A stretch of 27,489 nt of DNA, from assembly GCA_048885525.1 (NCBI GenBank), contig JBHLLP010000048.1, forward strand, positions 1 through 27,489. The letters are read 5' to 3'. This document shows positions 5,942 through 14,510 of this stretch, piece after piece. Origin of the DNA: Candidatus Hermodarchaeota archaeon. GTDB lineage: Archaea > Asgardarchaeota > Lokiarchaeia > Sigyniarchaeales > SOKP01. The notes beneath the pieces are model-generated. The model worked only from the letters and a program-made list of their open reading frames with translations, did not search any database and was not told the origin of the DNA. Position numbers and translations under genes: made by a program. The stretch's first letter is position 1. Each line of letters begins with the position of its first letter.

Positions 5942-8020
5942 ATGATGACAGGAGAAGCAGAATTTAATAAATTAATAAACGAAAAGAGTCCATATTTACA
6001 GCAACATGCTAATAATCCAGTAGAGTGGTATCCATGGGGAGAAGAGGCATTCAATAAAGCAAAAAGAGAGAATAAGCCAATCTTTTTATCGATAGGATAT
6101 TCAACTTGCCATTGGTGCCATGTTATGGCTCATGAATCCTTTGAAGATGAAGAAATAGCTGAATTGATGAATGAAGTATTTGTATCAATAAAAGTGGACA
6201 AAGAAGAGCGCCCAGATATAGACAAAATATATATGACTGTTTGTCAAATGATGACTGGTTCAGGAGGATGGCCATTAACAATAATAATGACTCCCGAAAA
6301 GAAGCCATTTTTTGCTGGGACCTATTTTCCAAAACAAACCAGATTTGGACGAATTGGATTAATAGACTTGATTAAACGCATAAAAGAACTTTGGATTAAT
6401 CAAAGAAATGAATTATTAAATTCTGCGGATCAGATTACTTTCAGTATTCAAAATATAGATCAAGAATCTCCTGGTGAGAAATTTTCAGAGAACATTCTGA
6501 AAAAGGCATTTCGACAATTATCAATTCAATTTGATTCTGTTAATGGTGGATTTGGAGATCATCCTAAATTCCCAACCCCACAGAATCTTACATTTCTACT
6601 TCGATATTGGAAACGGACTAGAGATGAAAAAGCATTAGAGATGGTTGAAACTACACTTCAAGCAATGAGAATGGGAGGAATTTATGATCATATTGGTTTT
6701 GGATTTCATAGATATTCAACTGATTCAAAATGGCTCGTTCCCCATTTTGAGAAGATGTTATATGACCAAGCATTAATTGCTATGGCGTATATTGAAGCTT
6801 ATCAAGCTACTAAAAATGATCTATACAAAAAGACAGCTCAAGAAATCATTTCTTACGTTCTAAGAGATATGATTTCACCAGAAGGAGGGTTCTATTCAGC
6901 TGAAGATGCAGATAGTGAAGGAGAAGAGGGAAAATTTTATGTATGGTCAAAAGAAGAATTAGAACAAACCCTTAAAAAGGATAAAATTGAGTTAGCTATG
7001 AAAATCTTTAATATCGAGGAAGCCGGAAATTATTTTGAAGAAGTAACAGGGAAAAAAACAGGCAAGAATATTTTATATTTGAAAAAACCAATAGATATAG
7101 AAATATTTGAAAGTTTTGAAAAAATTCGTTTAACTTTATTACAAAAAAGAGATAAAAGAATAAAACCTCATAAAGATGATAAAATTCTAACTGATTGGAA
7201 CGGATTATTTATTGCTGCTTTAGCCAAAGCTGCTGTAGCTTTCCAAGAGAAAATGTATTTAGATATAGCAAAGAAAGCAGTTCTTTTTATTCTTTCAAAA
7301 CTTCAGGAATCTAATAATAAACTATTACATCGATATAAAGATGGAGTCTCTGAAATTCAAGCTTATTTAACAGACTATGCCTATTTTATTTGGGGTTTAA
7401 TAGAATTGTATGAAGCTACTTTTGAAATTTTTTATTTAGAAACAGCCCTTGAATTATATAATATCCAAATAGAAGATTTTTGGGATGATGATATTGGTGG
7501 TTTTTATTTCACTGCAAAAAATGGTGAGAAGTTATTAACTAGACAAAAAGAAATATATGATGGAGCGATTCCTTCAGGGAATTCAATTGCTATGCTAAAC
7601 TTGCTTAGATTAAGTTACATTACGGGAAATTATGAATTAGAAGAAAAAGCAGATATCCTTCACAGAGTTTTTTCTAATAAAATTAAAGCTAATTCACTTG
7701 CTTATACTCAATTTTTGGTTGCTATAGATTTTGCAATTGGTCCAAGTTATTCACTAGTTATCGCAGGTGATTCAGGTGCTAGAGAAACTATCGAATTAAT
7801 GAAATCAATTCAAAAGGAATATCTTCCAAATAAAGTAATTATCCTTAGAAACACAGAAGAGAATTTTTCAGAGATGGATAAATTATCAAACTTTATCCAA
7901 TTTTTCGTTAAAATAGAAGATAAAGCAACGGGATATGTTTGCATCAATAAAACATGTAAGCCTCCTACTTCAGATCCCCAAAAAATTTTAGAGTATCTTA
8001 ATCCAATATGGAAATTTTAG
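5942..8020 (+). CDS. Thioredoxin-domain (DUF255) protein, YyaL/SPATA20 family
   Basis: [74 protein letters not shown] at 5942 preferred over the TTG at 5912. Confidence 0.93.
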
Positions 8021-8115
8021 AATAAAATAGTATATTATAGTTTTTCTAAAAAAATAATTTTATTTTAGAGATATAGGAACAGTATTAATTTTTGCAAATG
8101 TGAAAATAAGCAATT

Positions 8116-8250
8116 TTAATAATCATCATCTAATTCTTCATAATCGCCGTCGTCATCCCAATCTTCATCATCATCATCCCATTCTTCATCATCATCATCC
8201 CAGTCTTCGTCATCATCATCCCAATCTTCTTCATCTTTCTTTTTTGCCAT
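8116..8250 (-). CDS. 44-aa highly acidic Trp-repeat microprotein (not in ORF track)
   Basis: Hand translation MAKKKDEEDWDDDDEDWDDDDEEWDDDDEDWDDDGDYEELDDDY*. GGAGG at 8262-8258, 7 nt before the ATG. Repeat units differ at synonymous or D/E-conservative positions. Confidence 0.8.
   Translation of the reverse strand: MAKKKDEEDWDDDDEDWDDDDEEWDDDDEDWDDDGDYEELDDDY
8152..8229. repeat. Imperfect 21-bp tandem repeat (about 4 units) encoding E-D/E-W-D-D-D-D
   Basis: Trp codons (cca on + strand) at 8158, 8179, 8200 and 8221, exactly 21 nt apart, separated by (atc)n/ttc triplets. Confidence 0.9.
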
Positions 8251-8748
8251 TTAATTTCCTCCTATTATAATATTTTTTCTTTCTTTTTAATTATGATTTT
8301 GAGTTGAAATAAATTTAATAGTATTTCAATTAAATGAATTATAATATTGTTTATTTAAATTTTTCTATTAGAATGTGTTATTATCAAATTCTAAAAGAAG
8401 TTCATTATAAATTAAGCAATAGAGAATTATCGTGGTTTTAACTATAGAAGCATTAATGGCATAATTATCAAAAATCTAGGCGTTAATTCTCACAATGCTA
8501 ATTAATAATTATAAAATAATAACATAAACAAATTGGGAATATACTGAGAAAATATTATTGTAGAGTTATCTATAATAAATTTTTTACAAATTTCTCGAGA
8601 ATTATATTTAATTTGGTTTTTGAGAGCCATTTATCAATCATATGGATATATATTATAATATATTTTAGAAATCTCTTTATATTTATTGAGAAAATTAATT
8701 AATAAAAAAAAAGTTAAATTTTAAAGGATTTACGTTTATTGTGTGATT

Positions 8749-9250: not shown

Positions 9251-11248
9251 CTATAATCTGTCTGTGATTATTGAATAGATTTGTTCGGCAGTAAATCCTT
9301 TAATATCTATTGCAGAGCATCTGCAATTTCCTGAACAAGCACCACATCCTTTGCAGAGTGCTTCATTGATTTTAGCTACAGTTCCAAACCATCGATCTTC
9401 AACAAGTTCAATAGCACCATAAGCACAATTCTCAACGCACATTCCGCATCCAATACAGCGTTCAGGACGGACAACACCAAAAAAGGGTTCTACTTCAACT
9501 TCTCCTTTTGCCATTAAAACTGCAGCACCTGATGCTGCTCCTTTTGCTTGAGCTACAGCATCAGGAATATCTTTTGGCCCCTGAGCAACTCCAGCAATAA
9601 AAATACCATCTGTTAAAGTATCTACAGGTCTTAATTTTGGATGTGCTTCTAAAAAGAACCCATCTGCAGATCTTTGAATTCTTAACAAAGAAGTTATTAT
9701 ATCTGCATCAGCTCTTGGTTCTAAACCACAAGATAATACAAATAAATCGACTTTTAATTCAACTGGTTGTTGTAGTAAAGTATCTTCAGAACGTATAATA
9801 ATATTGTGATCTTCATCCTCACTGACTTCTGCAATTCTACCTCTCATATAACTTATTCCGTAATTTCTACCCGCAGATTCGTAAAATTCCTCATATCCCT
9901 TTCCAAAAGCTCGAACATCCATGTAGAAAATATATACATCCGCATCGGGATGTTTTTCTTTATATTGCCTTGCTTGTTTTGTTGCATACATACAACAGAC
10001 TCGAGAACAATATTGATTCCCCCCTTCTCTGAAATTCCTACTTCCAACGCATTGTAAGAAAGCAATACTATGTGGTTCTTTTAGATCCGATGGTCTTACT
10101 GGTTTTCCTAAAACTGGTCCAAAAGAACTTAATAACCGTTCCATTTGAAGCCCAGTAATAACATTTGGAAATTTACCATATCCATATTGTTTCAATTCTG
10201 TTGGGTCATATAAATCCCAACCAGTTGCAACTATAATTGTACCTACTTTAACTTTAAGATATTCTGGTTCATCATCATAAATAATGGCTTCAGGTTCACA
10301 AACATCCGTTCTCGCACAAATCCCACATTTTATGCAATGATCCATATCTATTGTATATTGTCCAGGAACAGCTTGGGGAAATGGAATATATATCGCTTTC
10401 CGAGTAGCTAATCCTAAATCAAATTCATTTCCAACTGTAACTGGGCAGTAATCAACACAGACTCCACATCCAGTACATTTTTCTTGGTCTACATAATGAG
10501 GTTTTTTCAATATTGTAACTTCGAAATTTCCAATATACCCTGAAACTTCTGTAACTTCAGAATATGTTAATAATTCTATGTTTTCTTCTCGTGATACTTC
10601 GGACATTTTAGGAGTAAGAATACAACTACTACAATCCATAGTTGGAAAAGTTTTATCGAGTTGAGCCATATGACCGCCAATAGTCGGACTTTTTTCAACT
10701 AGATATACTTTATAGCCCTCCATGGCGAGGTCCAAAGCCGCATTCATGCCCGCAATACCTCCCCCGATTATTAAACAAGATGGTTCTACTTTTACTTTCT
10801 GAACTTCTAATGGTACTAATTCTCTTGCTTTTGCAACAGCCATTCTAATATGGTCCTTAGCAGTCTCATACGCACCTTCTGGTTCTTTCATGTGAACCCA
10901 AGTGGAGTGTTCTCGAATATTTGCCATCTCAAATAAAAATTGATTTAACCCAGCTTCTTTGCATGCAATTCTAAAAGTTGGCTCATGCATTCTCGGAGAA
11001 CATGCTGCTACTATTATTCTATTTACTAATCCGGCTTCAATATCCTCTTTAATCATTTTTTGACCCACGTCTGAACAAAAGAACTTATATTCCCGGGCTA
11101 CTTCAACGTTTGGAAGTGTTTTTGCATATTCTACTAAATCTGGAACTGAAATAACACCGCCAATATTCACTCCGCAATGACATATGTAAACTCCAATCTT
11201 AGGCCTTTCATTACCGGTGACCTCAATTTCCTTTTTGGTTTCTGTCAT
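9251..11248 (-). CDS. hdrA: Heterodisulfide reductase subunit A (FAD, Fe-S; electron-bifurcating type)
   Basis: IGVYICHCG, AACSPRMHE, ANIREH, IIGGGIAG, GGHMAQLDKTFPTMDCSSC, two ferredoxin regions, QCVGSR, YCSRVCC, HPKLRP, QGPKDIP. AGGTGG RBS overlaps the hdrB stop. Confidence 0.97.
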   Translation of the reverse strand: MTETKKEIEVTGNERPKIGVYICHCGVNIGGVISVPDLVEYAKTLPNVEVAREYKFFCSDVGQKMIKEDIEAGLVNRIIVAACSPRMHEPTFRIACKEAGLNQFLFEMANIREHSTWVHMKEPEGAYETAKDHIRMAVAKARELVPLEVQKVKVEPSCLIIGGGIAGMNAALDLAMEGYKVYLVEKSPTIGGHMAQLDKTFPTMDCSSCILTPKMSEVSREENIELLTYSEVTEVSGYIGNFEVTILKKPHYVDQEKCTGCGVCVDYCPVTVGNEFDLGLATRKAIYIPFPQAVPGQYTIDMDHCIKCGICARTDVCEPEAIIYDDEPEYLKVKVGTIIVATGWDLYDPTELKQYGYGKFPNVITGLQMERLLSSFGPVLGKPVRPSDLKEPHSIAFLQCVGSRNFREGGNQYCSRVCCMYATKQARQYKEKHPDADVYIFYMDVRAFGKGYEEFYESAGRNYGISYMRGRIAEVSEDEDHNIIIRSEDTLLQQPVELKVDLFVLSCGLEPRADADIITSLLRIQRSADGFFLEAHPKLRPVDTLTDGIFIAGVAQGPKDIPDAVAQAKGAASGAAVLMAKGEVEVEPFFGVVRPERCIGCGMCVENCAYGAIELVEDRWFGTVAKINEALCKGCGACSGNCRCSAIDIKGFTAEQIYSIITDRL

Positions 11249-11258
11249 TTTTTTCCAC

Positions 11259-12209
11259 CTATATTAATTGTTCTTTCACTAAATTTAAAAATGGATCAAT
11301 TGAAATAAAAGGAGAAACACCTTGTAATTCATGATTTTTAACTAGACCTAATAAATTCGGATCCATTCCAAATGCAGTTCCTAAAAGTTGGGTGATATAT
11401 ATTACTGGGATCTTAAATGGTTCTCCAATAATATCTCCATATAAATTGTTTACCTCAACCTGTCCTAGGTCTAATTGCAGGTGACAGAAGGGACAGCAAT
11501 CAACAATAATATCTGCCCCCGCTTCTCTCATATTAACTAATTTTTCCCTTGAAAAATCTGCTGCAACTTCTTTAACAGCAGTTCTAACAGCTCCTCCCGC
11601 ACCACAACACATATATTTATCTTTGTAATCAATACTTTTGGCTCCAGTTAATTCTACAATTTCATCAAGGAATCTAGGTTCTTCATACTCACCATCCCAA
11701 GGTCTTTTATCACTTGGTTTTACTATATGGCAGCCATAATGCACTGCAACCTTTAAATCTGAAAATTTTAATTTAATATAATCTTTTAAGTGATCTAATC
11801 CCATATCAAGATATAATGCCTGAACAACATGTTTAGGTTCAAGATTCCCTTTATAAGTCCTACCTATTTTCGAAAGGTATTCATTTACTTCTTTTTTTAA
11901 ATCATATTCATGCTCAAGTTCATACCATGCATCTCTAAGAGTCCCATAACAACCATTACATCCAGTAAGTGGATTAACTCCAATTTCTTCAGCAATAGAA
12001 ATATTTCTTGCAGCAATAACCAGCCAAGTTGGTATGTGAAATGCTCTAAAAACACCAGGAGCAGGACAACATGAAGCACCAGGCAAATCTAAGATTTCAG
12101 CTCCGAGATGGTCAAAAACATTTCTTATTGAAGCTTCAATCATAGGATACCGATTAGGGATAACACATCCTAAAAAAAACCCATACCGCCATTTATAATC
12201 TTCGCTCAT
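11259..12209 (-). CDS. hdrB: Heterodisulfide reductase subunit B
   Basis: Two CCG domains: FFLGC, SCCPAPG, CNGC, HYGCH, CCGAGG, CPFCHLQLD; lies between hdrC and hdrA. Confidence 0.96.
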   Translation of the reverse strand: MSEDYKWRYGFFLGCVIPNRYPMIEASIRNVFDHLGAEILDLPGASCCPAPGVFRAFHIPTWLVIAARNISIAEEIGVNPLTGCNGCYGTLRDAWYELEHEYDLKKEVNEYLSKIGRTYKGNLEPKHVVQALYLDMGLDHLKDYIKLKFSDLKVAVHYGCHIVKPSDKRPWDGEYEEPRFLDEIVELTGAKSIDYKDKYMCCGAGGAVRTAVKEVAADFSREKLVNMREAGADIIVDCCPFCHLQLDLGQVEVNNLYGDIIGEPFKIPVIYITQLLGTAFGMDPNLLGLVKNHELQGVSPFISIDPFLNLVKEQLI

Positions 12210-12211
12210 TT

Positions 12212-12814
12212 TTAGACCTCCTTATCTTTTTCTGCTGCTTTTGCTCTTTCTTCTTTTAATTTTGCAGCATTATCCATCAAATCTCTGAATCCAACAGCTT
12301 TCATCAATTCTTGGCATTCTTTAACTGCTTCAGGATATGAATGAACCGTAGGAGGTAATGGTGGTAATCCATATGATTCTCTTAAATCTCTCCATTTTTT
12401 ATTAGCCTCTCCATTCGCAGGTACACCATGTCCAGTAGCATAGAAAATATTATTAGCTAAACCAAAATGTGAATCTAAAATATATCCTTCTTCCACGGCT
12501 ATATTTCTTAGTTTTATAATCATATCTGTAACTGGAATATTTCTAGGGCAACGTTCATAACAATAATAACAAGTTGAACAAAGCCAAATATCAATATCTT
12601 TTAAAACCGATTCATCACCTGTTAATGCTCGGCGAACTGCAGAACGAGTTCGATATGCTGTCCTCCTTCCAGAAGGGCACCCTCCAGTACACGTTCCACA
12701 ATTTATACACGCTCTTATCTTTTCTAATCCAGCATCAACAAATTTTTGAGCAATTCTTGAACTTGTTGTCTTATAGACTTTTCTTTTTATATATTTTTCT
12801 ACATTTTCGCTCAT
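12212..12814 (-). CDS. hdrC: Heterodisulfide reductase subunit C
   Basis: CINCGTCTGGCPSGR and IWLCSTCYYCYERCPR; TGHGVP; first gene of hdrCBA. Confidence 0.95.
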   Translation of the reverse strand: MSENVEKYIKRKVYKTTSSRIAQKFVDAGLEKIRACINCGTCTGGCPSGRRTAYRTRSAVRRALTGDESVLKDIDIWLCSTCYYCYERCPRNIPVTDMIIKLRNIAVEEGYILDSHFGLANNIFYATGHGVPANGEANKKWRDLRESYGLPPLPPTVHSYPEAVKECQELMKAVGFRDLMDNAAKLKEERAKAAEKDKEV

Positions 12815-13496: not shown

Positions 13497-14510
13497 TTAT
13501 AACATATATTGTTTTAAAATTTCATCATTTTCGATTTCAACAATCATCTCATTAGTTAAATTGTCATAGGTTCTACCATAAATCACTTTTCCGTGAGATT
13601 TCTCCAAATCAGAATATCTTAATGTTAGCTTAGCAGCATATTTCAATGATTCTTCATCAAATTTACCTTGTAAAACAGTAATAGGTCCAGGAACCTCTTT
13701 AGCTTCCATTATCAAATCACCAGAATTTTTAAGATTAATTAAAACTTTGTTTTCAGCCTCATTCCTTCCTACAATTACTTTAACATTTTTATATCGGAAA
13801 TGGCGTCCATATTTTAAAATTGGAATATCTTGTATTTTTAGTTCCTCATTAAATTTTAAATAATCTCTCATTCTATTCGCAAAGTTTACATCTGTTAATA
13901 GACAGCCTCCACAAGCATAGTAACTCTCCAATAAACCATGATCTTTAGCTATTTTCAATTGAATTTTCCTGCTCCTTCCTTTTATTCCTAATAATCTCTC
14001 TCTGTCTATTATTCCCTGTTCTTCATATATAGTTGGCTTTAATTGAAGAGCTGATAAAGGTCTTAGAACTTTTCCTTGAAGTCCAGATTCTTCTTCTACA
14101 ATCTTAAGTGCTTTCATGTGTTGAGATTTGGGTCTTTGATTAAGAACTTCTCCAGTAAATATAAATTGTGCTCCTACTTGATTCATAAATTCTTTAGCTT
14201 TTTTTAATATAAAAATCCTACAATCAATACATGGATTTAAATTCTTTCCATAGCCAAACTTAGGGTTACGAATAATTTCTAAATATTCATCCCCTTTAGG
14301 TTGAACAAAAACTTTTATTCCTAATTTTTCATGGAATAAATTTAATCCACAATCGGAATGACTGAGTACTTTATCACATAGACAAAATGGTGATTTAAAA
14401 TTTAGACCTATTACTTCAATTCCTTGAAGCCTAAGTAAAAGACAAGCAATTAAACTGTCTAAACCCCCAGATACTAATCCAAGACCTATTACTTTCTCTT
14501 TCTTTTTCAC
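13497..14510 (-). CDS. PP-loop tRNA sulfurtransferase-like protein (ThiI/MnmA-related, C-terminal DUF814/NFACT-R-like domain)
   Basis: SGGLDS PP-loop, GYGKNLNPCIDCR, TGEVLNQRPKSQ, VLRPLSA, GGCLLTD, GRHFR, VIVGRNEAEN, PGP; GTG start. Confidence 0.85.
   Translation of the reverse strand: MKKKEKVIGLGLVSGGLDSLIACLLLRLQGIEVIGLNFKSPFCLCDKVLSHSDCGLNLFHEKLGIKVFVQPKGDEYLEIIRNPKFGYGKNLNPCIDCRIFILKKAKEFMNQVGAQFIFTGEVLNQRPKSQHMKALKIVEEESGLQGKVLRPLSALQLKPTIYEEQGIIDRERLLGIKGRSRKIQLKIAKDHGLLESYYACGGCLLTDVNFANRMRDYLKFNEELKIQDIPILKYGRHFRYKNVKVIVGRNEAENKVLINLKNSGDLIMEAKEVPGPITVLQGKFDEESLKYAAKLTLRYSDLEKSHGKVIYGRTYDNLTNEMIVEIENDEILKQYML

Follow-up and report, generated by a model that had tools for sequence, protein, structure and literature searches.

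A hyper-acidic tryptophan microprotein gene in an Asgard archaeon, assigned by sequence comparison to an undescribed microprotein family

The micro-gene, its expression signals and its neighbourhood

The window, meaning the whole stretch of 27,489 nucleotides that was analysed, carries on its minus strand an open reading frame of 44 codons, running from ATG to TAA, whose translation is identical to the 44 residues quoted in the first-pass annotation. Re-reading and translating the sequence confirmed what that annotation had described with regard to the ORF, the GGAGG motif, the amino acid composition and the positions of the aromatic residues: the peptide contains 31 D/E, three Lys (all inside the five-residue head), Trp at positions 10, 17, 24 and 31, and Tyr at positions 37 and 44, which gives a computed net charge of about -28. 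The features recognised at this locus, all on the minus strand, are the following.

8048-8054, minus strand: run of seven T, about 62 nt 3' of the stop codon, between the microprotein gene and the convergent DUF255 gene that ends at 8020; likely archaeal oligo-T terminator
8116-8250, minus strand: predicted microprotein coding sequence (stop codon 8116-8118), encoding in turn a basic MAKKK head, the acidic Trp repeats and a tail that contains a D-G-D-Y turn motif and ends in Tyr
8153-8235, minus strand: 21-nt tandem repeat yielding the W-[DE]6 heptads (Tandem Repeats Finder: 4.0 copies, 91% matches, no indels)
8258-8262, minus strand: Shine-Dalgarno-like GGAGG, 7 nt 5' of the ATG
8263-8351, minus strand: conserved stretch from the TATA box to the ribosome binding site (RBS), with a high identity across orthologues that exceeds that of the repeat part of the coding sequence; probable 5' leader
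8352-8366, minus strand: putative archaeal promoter, with a TATA box TTTAAATA at 8359-8352 preceded by a purine-rich BRE-like AGAAAAA at 8366-8360
8368-8394, minus strand: inverted repeat TTAGAAT-N13-ATTCTAA just upstream of the promoter, partly conserved in orthologues; possible regulator binding site

The 21-nt units differ from one another solely by GAT/GAC and D/E changes, and the earlier statement that variation among the repeats is confined to synonymous or D/E substitutions is thus borne out. Since the units are nearly identical, the DNA duplication must be recent, and taken alone it constitutes weak evidence of selection. Selection had previously been argued from this very variation; the conclusion stands, yet it draws its strength from the relatives of the gene (see below) and not from the repeat units.

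The signals flanking the coding sequence are also found in the syntenic orthologues described in the next section. The RBS is kept as (A/G)GGAGGA in six of them and is weakened in a seventh. The candidate TTTAAATA TATA box pointed out at first reading sits in a block conserved across every orthologue that covers it, and the TTTAAATAA core of this block is identical in all of them; the promoter assignment follows the archaeal promoter consensus and is considered putative. The predicted 5' leader would measure about 75 nt. As for the T-run, it is largely conserved, with six or seven T in five orthologues and an interruption in two. A 25-nt direct repeat (2.2 copies, window 8307-8360) covers the putative TATA box together with the beginning of the leader, and its second copy holds a weaker TATA-like sequence.

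The gene stands alone between the convergent gene, which encodes a 702-aa DUF255/thioredoxin-like protein, and an upstream SCO4226-like gene. The latter is not kept in the orthologues, where the upstream neighbour differs, and neither the DUF255 thioredoxin-like nor the SCO4226-like neighbour gives a functional hint. A TPR protein gene lies 2.4 kb away. No lysine-rich micro-gene or very basic protein was found beside the window gene, no ATP-grasp gene is present within the window, and no acidic micro-ORF occurs upstream of ABCE1 in this genome, in which P0001 is the sole ORF of at most 90 aa with at least 50% D/E. Further upstream and on the same strand, an HdrA / CCG-domain / ferredoxin-type gene trio (heterodisulfide-reductase-like) occupies window positions 9251-12814 (-), and a 336-aa protein with ThiI and NFACT-R_2 domains is encoded at window positions 13497-14510.

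Orthologues, tryptophan spacing and distribution of the family

Orthologues were sought by locating the C-terminal part of the convergent DUF255 neighbour in same-genus genomes and inspecting the region downstream of it. An acidic micro-ORF was found at the same place in 8 same-genus genomes, while 21 others that possess the neighbour gene show no acidic ORF within 1.5 kb at this place. The window locus is therefore confined to a sub-clade of the genus and, accordingly, dispensable or replaceable by paralogues. The intact orthologues are 31-45 aa long and every length difference between them is in frame. Frame-disrupting variation among close relatives, named beforehand in the first-pass annotation as an observation that would speak against the gene, was seen in none of the orthologues. 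The five-residue lysine head (MAKKK) opens all those with a readable start, except two, and the tail carries the motif W-D-N-D-G-D-aromatic-E-E; the terminal Tyr, on the other hand, is lost in half of the window gene's orthologues. On the 17 non-repeat, unambiguously alignable codons we obtained a pS of 0.39 and a pN of 0.058, i.e. a pN/pS of about 0.15, with the proviso that the numbers are small and the pairs not independent. Overall, the comparison of these sequences indicates that the window ORF is a real gene under selection rather than a chance repeat.

The exact heptad fared differently. It is present in the window peptide, as first reported, but the conservation of Trp spacing by which the first-pass annotation had proposed to judge it was not observed, as Trp residues in the syntenic orthologues are separated by 14; 13; 10 and 4; 11; and 10, 5 and 4 residues. 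We also scanned the genus with a relaxed pattern consisting of two acidic Trp sites with any gap of 3-27 nt between them. This pattern occurs in 25 of the 54 genomes of the genus, and all matches (58/58) have gaps that are a multiple of three; across the genus, Trp residues lie 6 to 14 residues apart, the mode being 8 (15 matches), while a spacing of 7 is found in 10 matches. Given that the orthologues have no regular heptads and that their spacing varies, the seven-residue rhythm is a by-product of a recent, genome-specific slippage expansion of 21 nt rather than a conserved structural period. What these comparisons show to be retained is the composition, the head and the tail motif, repeat number and spacing being free to vary.

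We then considered the whole phylum, Promethearchaeota, i.e. Asgard, represented by 400 genomes. That the host is an Asgard archaeon, as had been proposed from the letters of the sequence, is confirmed by a same-genus complete genome (G006), which matches CP070831.1, labelled Promethearchaeota. The search across Asgard genomes advocated at first reading, carried out with a DNA pattern for W-[DE]6-W, proved the motif to be widespread (63/400 genomes, against 0 for the reversed control pattern). Of 30 sites inspected, 27 proved to be ORFs of 26-74 aa or truncated parts of them, most with a basic N-terminal head. A Shine-Dalgarno-like motif precedes 17 of 25 family ORFs, as compared with 7.6% of all ATGs in the same loci, although relatives in this count are not independent. 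No neighbour is universal to the family loci across the phylum, and the contexts differ by clade: DUF255; a methyltransferase/ATP-grasp fusion together with a MobA-like gene; deoxyhypusine synthase; or a metallo-beta-lactamase-fold protein. At four loci of another genus of the same family (L033-L036, genus g28), the acidic Trp micro-ORF adjoins deoxyhypusine synthase (Pfam PF01916, E = 2e-89), the enzyme that modifies translation factor aIF5A.

When two consecutive heptads were sought across all GTDB species, 82 loci were retrieved, of which 80 were examined. The archaeal loci (Promethearchaeota, Thorarchaeota, Thermoproteota, Nitrososphaeria, Bathyarchaeia and Thermococcaceae) encode microproteins of 21-73 aa, while in bacteria (Longimicrobiaceae, Planctomycetota, Anaerolineae, Prevotella and others) the matches mostly correspond to the C-terminal tail of a protein of 70-160 aa, in some cases behind a LysW-like or rubredoxin-like zinc ribbon. 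Four bacterial MAG loci (L068, L072, L109 and L133) encode proteins of 84-117 aa that combine a small zinc ribbon, with weak LysW, rubredoxin-like or DnaJ/anti-TRAP-like matches, and a C-terminal W-[DE]n tail; proteins of 110-160 aa with such W-acidic tails and no recognised domain occur in Longimicrobiaceae and Planctomycetota, and six IMG/VR viral contigs (L213-L218) encode proteins of 73-289 aa with double-heptad W-acidic tails. The tail W-D-N/D-D-G-(D/N/Y)-aromatic is common to the window-locus orthologues, further paralogues within the genus, a single member from another genus and the database matches P0002 and P0004, which argues for common descent within the taxonomic family. The D-G-D turn is missing from more distant family members. 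Across phyla, bacteria included, homology is not separable from convergence, and the similarity of such low-complexity sequences could be partly convergent, a caveat already raised at first reading and one that we maintain.

Database searches returned very little. The 44-aa peptide has no match in Pfam (E <= 0.1), NCBIfam or PDB (sequences, E <= 10), and it is absent, together with the four orthologues checked, from a collection of 15 billion predicted proteins. Searching 5.8 billion proteins with the peptide yielded one weak match (P0002), and a 14-sequence family profile run against 1.84 billion representatives yielded a single one (P0004). In full-text literature searches, we came across no account of W-acidic or DSS1-like small proteins from Asgard or other archaea. 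Taken together, the in-frame orthologues and the absence from databases uphold the earlier claim of a real coding gene overlooked by gene callers. The window peptide shares the features by which we delimit the family, namely (i) an ORF of under about 75 aa, (ii) at least half D/E, (iii) at least two Trp in acidic runs, (iv) its own RBS, and (v) the common non-repeat tail motif, at least within the taxonomic family. On these sequence features, the window gene is a lineage-specific, patchy paralogue of a large undescribed Asgard family of hyper-acidic Trp microproteins.

The second family member and the methyltransferase/ATP-grasp fusion gene

This genome has exactly two family members. The second one, already called by NCBI without a name and with a start identical to that inferred here, lies divergent from a fusion gene at a distance of 830 nt, a gap in which Rfam detects nothing.

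G000:C7:41215-41352 (= L162:4216-4353), plus strand: second family member, 45 aa, with a GTG start, ending in Phe-Tyr
G000:C7:38449-40383 (= L162:1450-3384), minus strand: methyltransferase/ATP-grasp fusion gene, 643 aa, combining a class-I SAM methyltransferase with a D-Ala-D-Ala-ligase-like ATP-grasp

A proteasome-activating ATPase gene comes after the fusion gene, the paralogue is followed at a distance of 95 nt by a MobA-like gene, and a TFB gene is nearby. In two genera, 22 of 30 loci have an acidic Trp micro-ORF 700-970 nt upstream of the fusion gene and divergent from it, and all but one of the 22 paired peptides end in Tyr or Phe. In three further genera, both are on the same strand, with the micro-ORF preceding the fusion gene by 63-472 nt. 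As the pairing thus extends over five genera in two orientations, the association has outlived rearrangement. The fusion enzyme itself is 59-87% identical across several families of the phylum (79/251 genomes), including families without a nearby acidic micro-ORF, and no curated family matches it above cut-off. The only matches of its ATP-grasp half in solved structures and NCBIfam models are D-Ala-D-Ala ligases, not RimK, LysX or tubulin tyrosine ligase (TTL); the organisms that carry it are presumably devoid of peptidoglycan. A tblastn search with the fusion enzyme against all other W-acidic loci retrieved only loci of family f1 and one ordinary bacterial Ddl-like gene.

Two other proteins of this genome are worth recording here. 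The TATA-binding protein, encoded at G000:C41:14066-14842 (+), has an N-terminal extension of about 40 residues with acidic/Phe repeats before its conserved core, and thus represents a DNA-binding protein to which an acidic/aromatic tail is fused. One of the four histones encoded in the genome, at G000:C24:11496-11729 (+), has a lysine-rich N-terminal tail that opens with the five residues of the microprotein head.

Candidate functions and comparison with known systems

A peptide with 70% D/E and conserved aromatic residues, viewed in the light of established knowledge of DSS1, prothymosin-alpha and the acidic/aromatic motifs of histone chaperones, suggests a disordered polyanion that would bind basic partner surfaces through charge and aromatic anchors; we place the chances of this reading at about even. 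The gene at 8116-8250 (-) is predicted to be transcribed independently and translated. Its product would be intrinsically disordered and polyanionic, opening with a short lysine head, followed by Asp/Glu runs in which the Trp residues are embedded and by a retained tail comprising a Trp, the D-N/D-D-G-D turn, an aromatic, acidic residues and, often, a C-terminal Tyr. The acidic runs would bind the strongly basic surface of one or more proteins, for instance a nucleic-acid-binding surface, with the Trp, Tyr and Phe side chains serving as hydrophobic anchors, and the outcome might be shielding, chaperoning or competition with nucleic acid, as brought about by DSS1/Sem1, prothymosin-alpha and histone-chaperone acidic tails. 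A complex prediction with the peptide alignment A1 and a homodimer of one histone of the genome (P0003), run without controls, scored 0.02, a value that speaks neither for nor against binding. The disordered acidic ligand or nucleic-acid mimic put forward in the first-pass annotation remains the most reasonable reading, although the eukaryote-type partners then proposed for it are unsupported.

These partners belong to an explanation in which the peptide is a multivalent eukaryote-like Trp-acidic motif for an Asgard actin or Arp2/3-like protein, a proteasome or PCI-type protein or the nearby TPR protein, its heptad setting the valency. The composition does resemble DSS1/Sem1 and W-acidic motifs, the host is an Asgard archaeon, and the TPR protein is encoded only 2.4 kb away; yet the heptad spacing is not conserved, the DSS1_SEM1 model matches neither the peptide nor anything in the genome, the 'PCI' matches are ordinary winged-helix regulators, no Trp has a Leu or Met at -2, and neither a WH2 nor a C-helix is present. 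In addition, similar peptides occur in Thermoproteota, Thermococcaceae and many bacteria, in which we know of no eukaryote-like partners. We consider this explanation very improbable. More improbable still is that the locus is not a protein gene at all and represents an open non-coding 21-nt tandem repeat, a C/D-box small RNA or a His-rich frame on the opposite strand. The sequence is indeed a DNA tandem repeat, Rfam C/D-box sRNA models overlap the ORF, and a 56-codon GTG frame is open on the opposite strand. The Rfam matches are nonetheless sub-threshold (17-23 bits, against gathering scores of 38-60) and result from GATGA repeats that mimic the C box, while the opposite frame, which has neither a conserved start nor a conserved RBS, is inevitably open, as no stop codon can arise in the antisense of GAN codons. 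Furthermore, start codon, RBS, non-repeat tail motif and stop are conserved in frame over 31-45 codons, and the sense frame displays the pN/pS of 0.15.

Two further explanations deserve somewhat more credit. A cation-binding peptide, in which carboxylate runs and a D-x-D-G-D turn would chelate Ca2+, Mg2+ or a transition metal so as to buffer, store or sense these ions, is unlikely in our estimation. There are 31 carboxylates per 44 residues, and poly-carboxylate peptides also bind cations; aromatics aside, the sole non-acidic conserved positions are the Asn and Gly of D-N-D-G-D, a motif that matches positions 1-5 of an EF-hand loop; and an SCO4226-like gene, of a nickel-responsive type, lies upstream in this genome. 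Against these points, the peptide has neither the Gly 6 nor the Glu 12 of an EF-hand, the orthologues do not retain the SCO4226-like neighbour, distant family members do not have the D-G-D turn, and ion binding offers no evident use for the conserved Trp, Tyr and Phe. The other explanation, which we hold to be marginally less probable, makes the peptide a substrate, carrier or regulator of an ATP-grasp ligase that recognises the acidic tail with its C-terminal aromatic and ligates or modifies it. Precedents exist, since RimK extends the acidic C-terminus of ribosomal protein S6, LysX loads the acidic carrier LysW, and tubulin tyrosine ligase acts on a Glu-Glu-Tyr end. The paralogue adjoins the 643-aa fusion gene, the pairing (22/30 loci of two genera, plus three further genera) survives rearrangement, and 21 of the 22 paired peptides have the terminal Tyr or Phe. 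W-acidic repeats also follow a LysW-like zinc ribbon in some bacterial proteins, and the action of RimK on an acidic C-terminus is documented (PMC10375531). However, the window gene itself has no adjacent ATP-grasp gene, the fusion gene being elsewhere in the genome; the ATP-grasp half is similar to D-Ala-D-Ala ligases alone, i.e. to small-molecule ligases, and not to RimK, LysX or TTL; high conservation of the fusion enzyme is also seen in lineages that have no micro-ORF next to it; and half of the window gene's orthologues no longer end in Tyr.

Small acidic disordered proteins such as DSS1 and prothymosin-alpha are potent regulators in eukaryotes, and Asgard archaea are the closest archaeal relatives of eukaryotes. 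With the disordered polyanion as the preferred reading, an abundant archaeal analogue would represent a class of regulators that is both new and easy to test; the peptide is short enough to synthesise. Because the gene and its relatives were overlooked by standard gene callers, a conserved microprotein family is missing from the Asgard proteome inventories, which serve reasoning on the origin of eukaryotes. The present analysis also corrects the attractive, unsupported idea of the heptad as a eukaryote-like multivalent motif and adds a testable lead, namely the conserved pairing of the paralogue with the methyltransferase/ATP-grasp fusion enzyme. As a more distant speculation, to which we give little credence, the family might be a prokaryotic counterpart of the DSS1/Sem1, CSNAP and prothymosin type, or might consist of acidic tails ending in Tyr/Phe that are modified by the ATP-grasp/methyltransferase enzyme and foreshadow tubulin-tail-like chemistry. 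If true, either version would imply a layer of unannotated microproteins regulating basic nucleic-acid-binding or translation proteins in Asgard archaea.

Several known systems were compared with the peptide and set aside. The kinesin-light-chain W-acidic motif requires Leu or Met at -2 relative to the Trp and Asp or Glu after it; in the peptide, position -2 is Glu for each of Trp 10, 17, 24 and 31. As to the WASP-family CA region and the cortactin DDW motif, the peptide consists of a lysine head and acidic repeats, with no C-helix, WH2, actin-regulator or other domain. An EF-hand loop spans 12 residues, of which 1, 3 and 5 are Asp, 6 is Gly and 12 is Glu in the consensus; D-N/D-D-G-D agrees with the first five, but the sixth position is occupied by Tyr/Phe/Leu/Trp and the twelfth by a residue other than Glu, and no Pfam EF-hand match was obtained. 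A LysW/ArgW carrier was discarded as the peptide has no Cys and no NCBIfam match, and a graspetide-type precursor as the window holds no ATP-grasp gene and the paralogue's neighbour is D-Ala-D-Ala-ligase-like. For a C/D-box small RNA, the best covariance scores, 22.9 and 22.6 bits, fall short of the respective gathering scores of 60 and 45. Regarding PCI-domain partners, the PF01399 matches in the genome are short and of a generic winged-helix kind, and one that was inspected resembles an Lrp/AsnC-type regulator by sequence. DSS1_SEM1 (PF05160) gave no Pfam match for the peptide at E <= 0.1 and, when the whole genome was searched in six frames, none at E <= 10. The links to DSS1/Sem1, WASP and kinesin light chain drawn at first reading thus found no support.

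Likeness of a looser kind is apparent with three groups of proteins. Like the LysW/ArgW carriers and ribosomal protein S6 acted upon by RimK, family members are small acidic proteins or tails with a Trp near an acidic C-terminus, the feature recognised by ATP-grasp ligases in those systems; moreover, the paralogue lies beside an ATP-grasp fusion gene, and bacterial LysW-like ribbons bear W-acidic repeats. They differ in that LysW/ArgW carriers have a four-Cys zinc ribbon and a C-terminal E-D-W-G-E, neither of which is found in the window peptide, and in that the neighbouring ATP-grasp is D-Ala-D-Ala-ligase-like, unlike RimK/LysX systems, the window gene having no such neighbour. DSS1 binds basic grooves and can mimic single-stranded DNA. 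With DSS1/Sem1 and CSNAP the microprotein shares a tiny size, disorder, a very acidic character and Trp or Phe inside Asp/Glu runs, but it is of about 44 aa versus 70-90 for DSS1/Sem1 and is distinguished by its lysine head, its tandem repeats, which vary in number, and its D-G-D turn motif; without a sequence-model match, the analogy to DSS1/Sem1 is functional only. Prothymosin-alpha and the histone-chaperone tails of the Spt16, Nap1 and ANP32E type differ from it by the lack of homology, by its being a stand-alone microprotein rather than a tail, and by the occurrence of similar peptides also in archaea without histones; the resemblance to them resides in a polyanionic disordered chain that would address basic nucleic-acid-binding surfaces by means of aromatic anchors.
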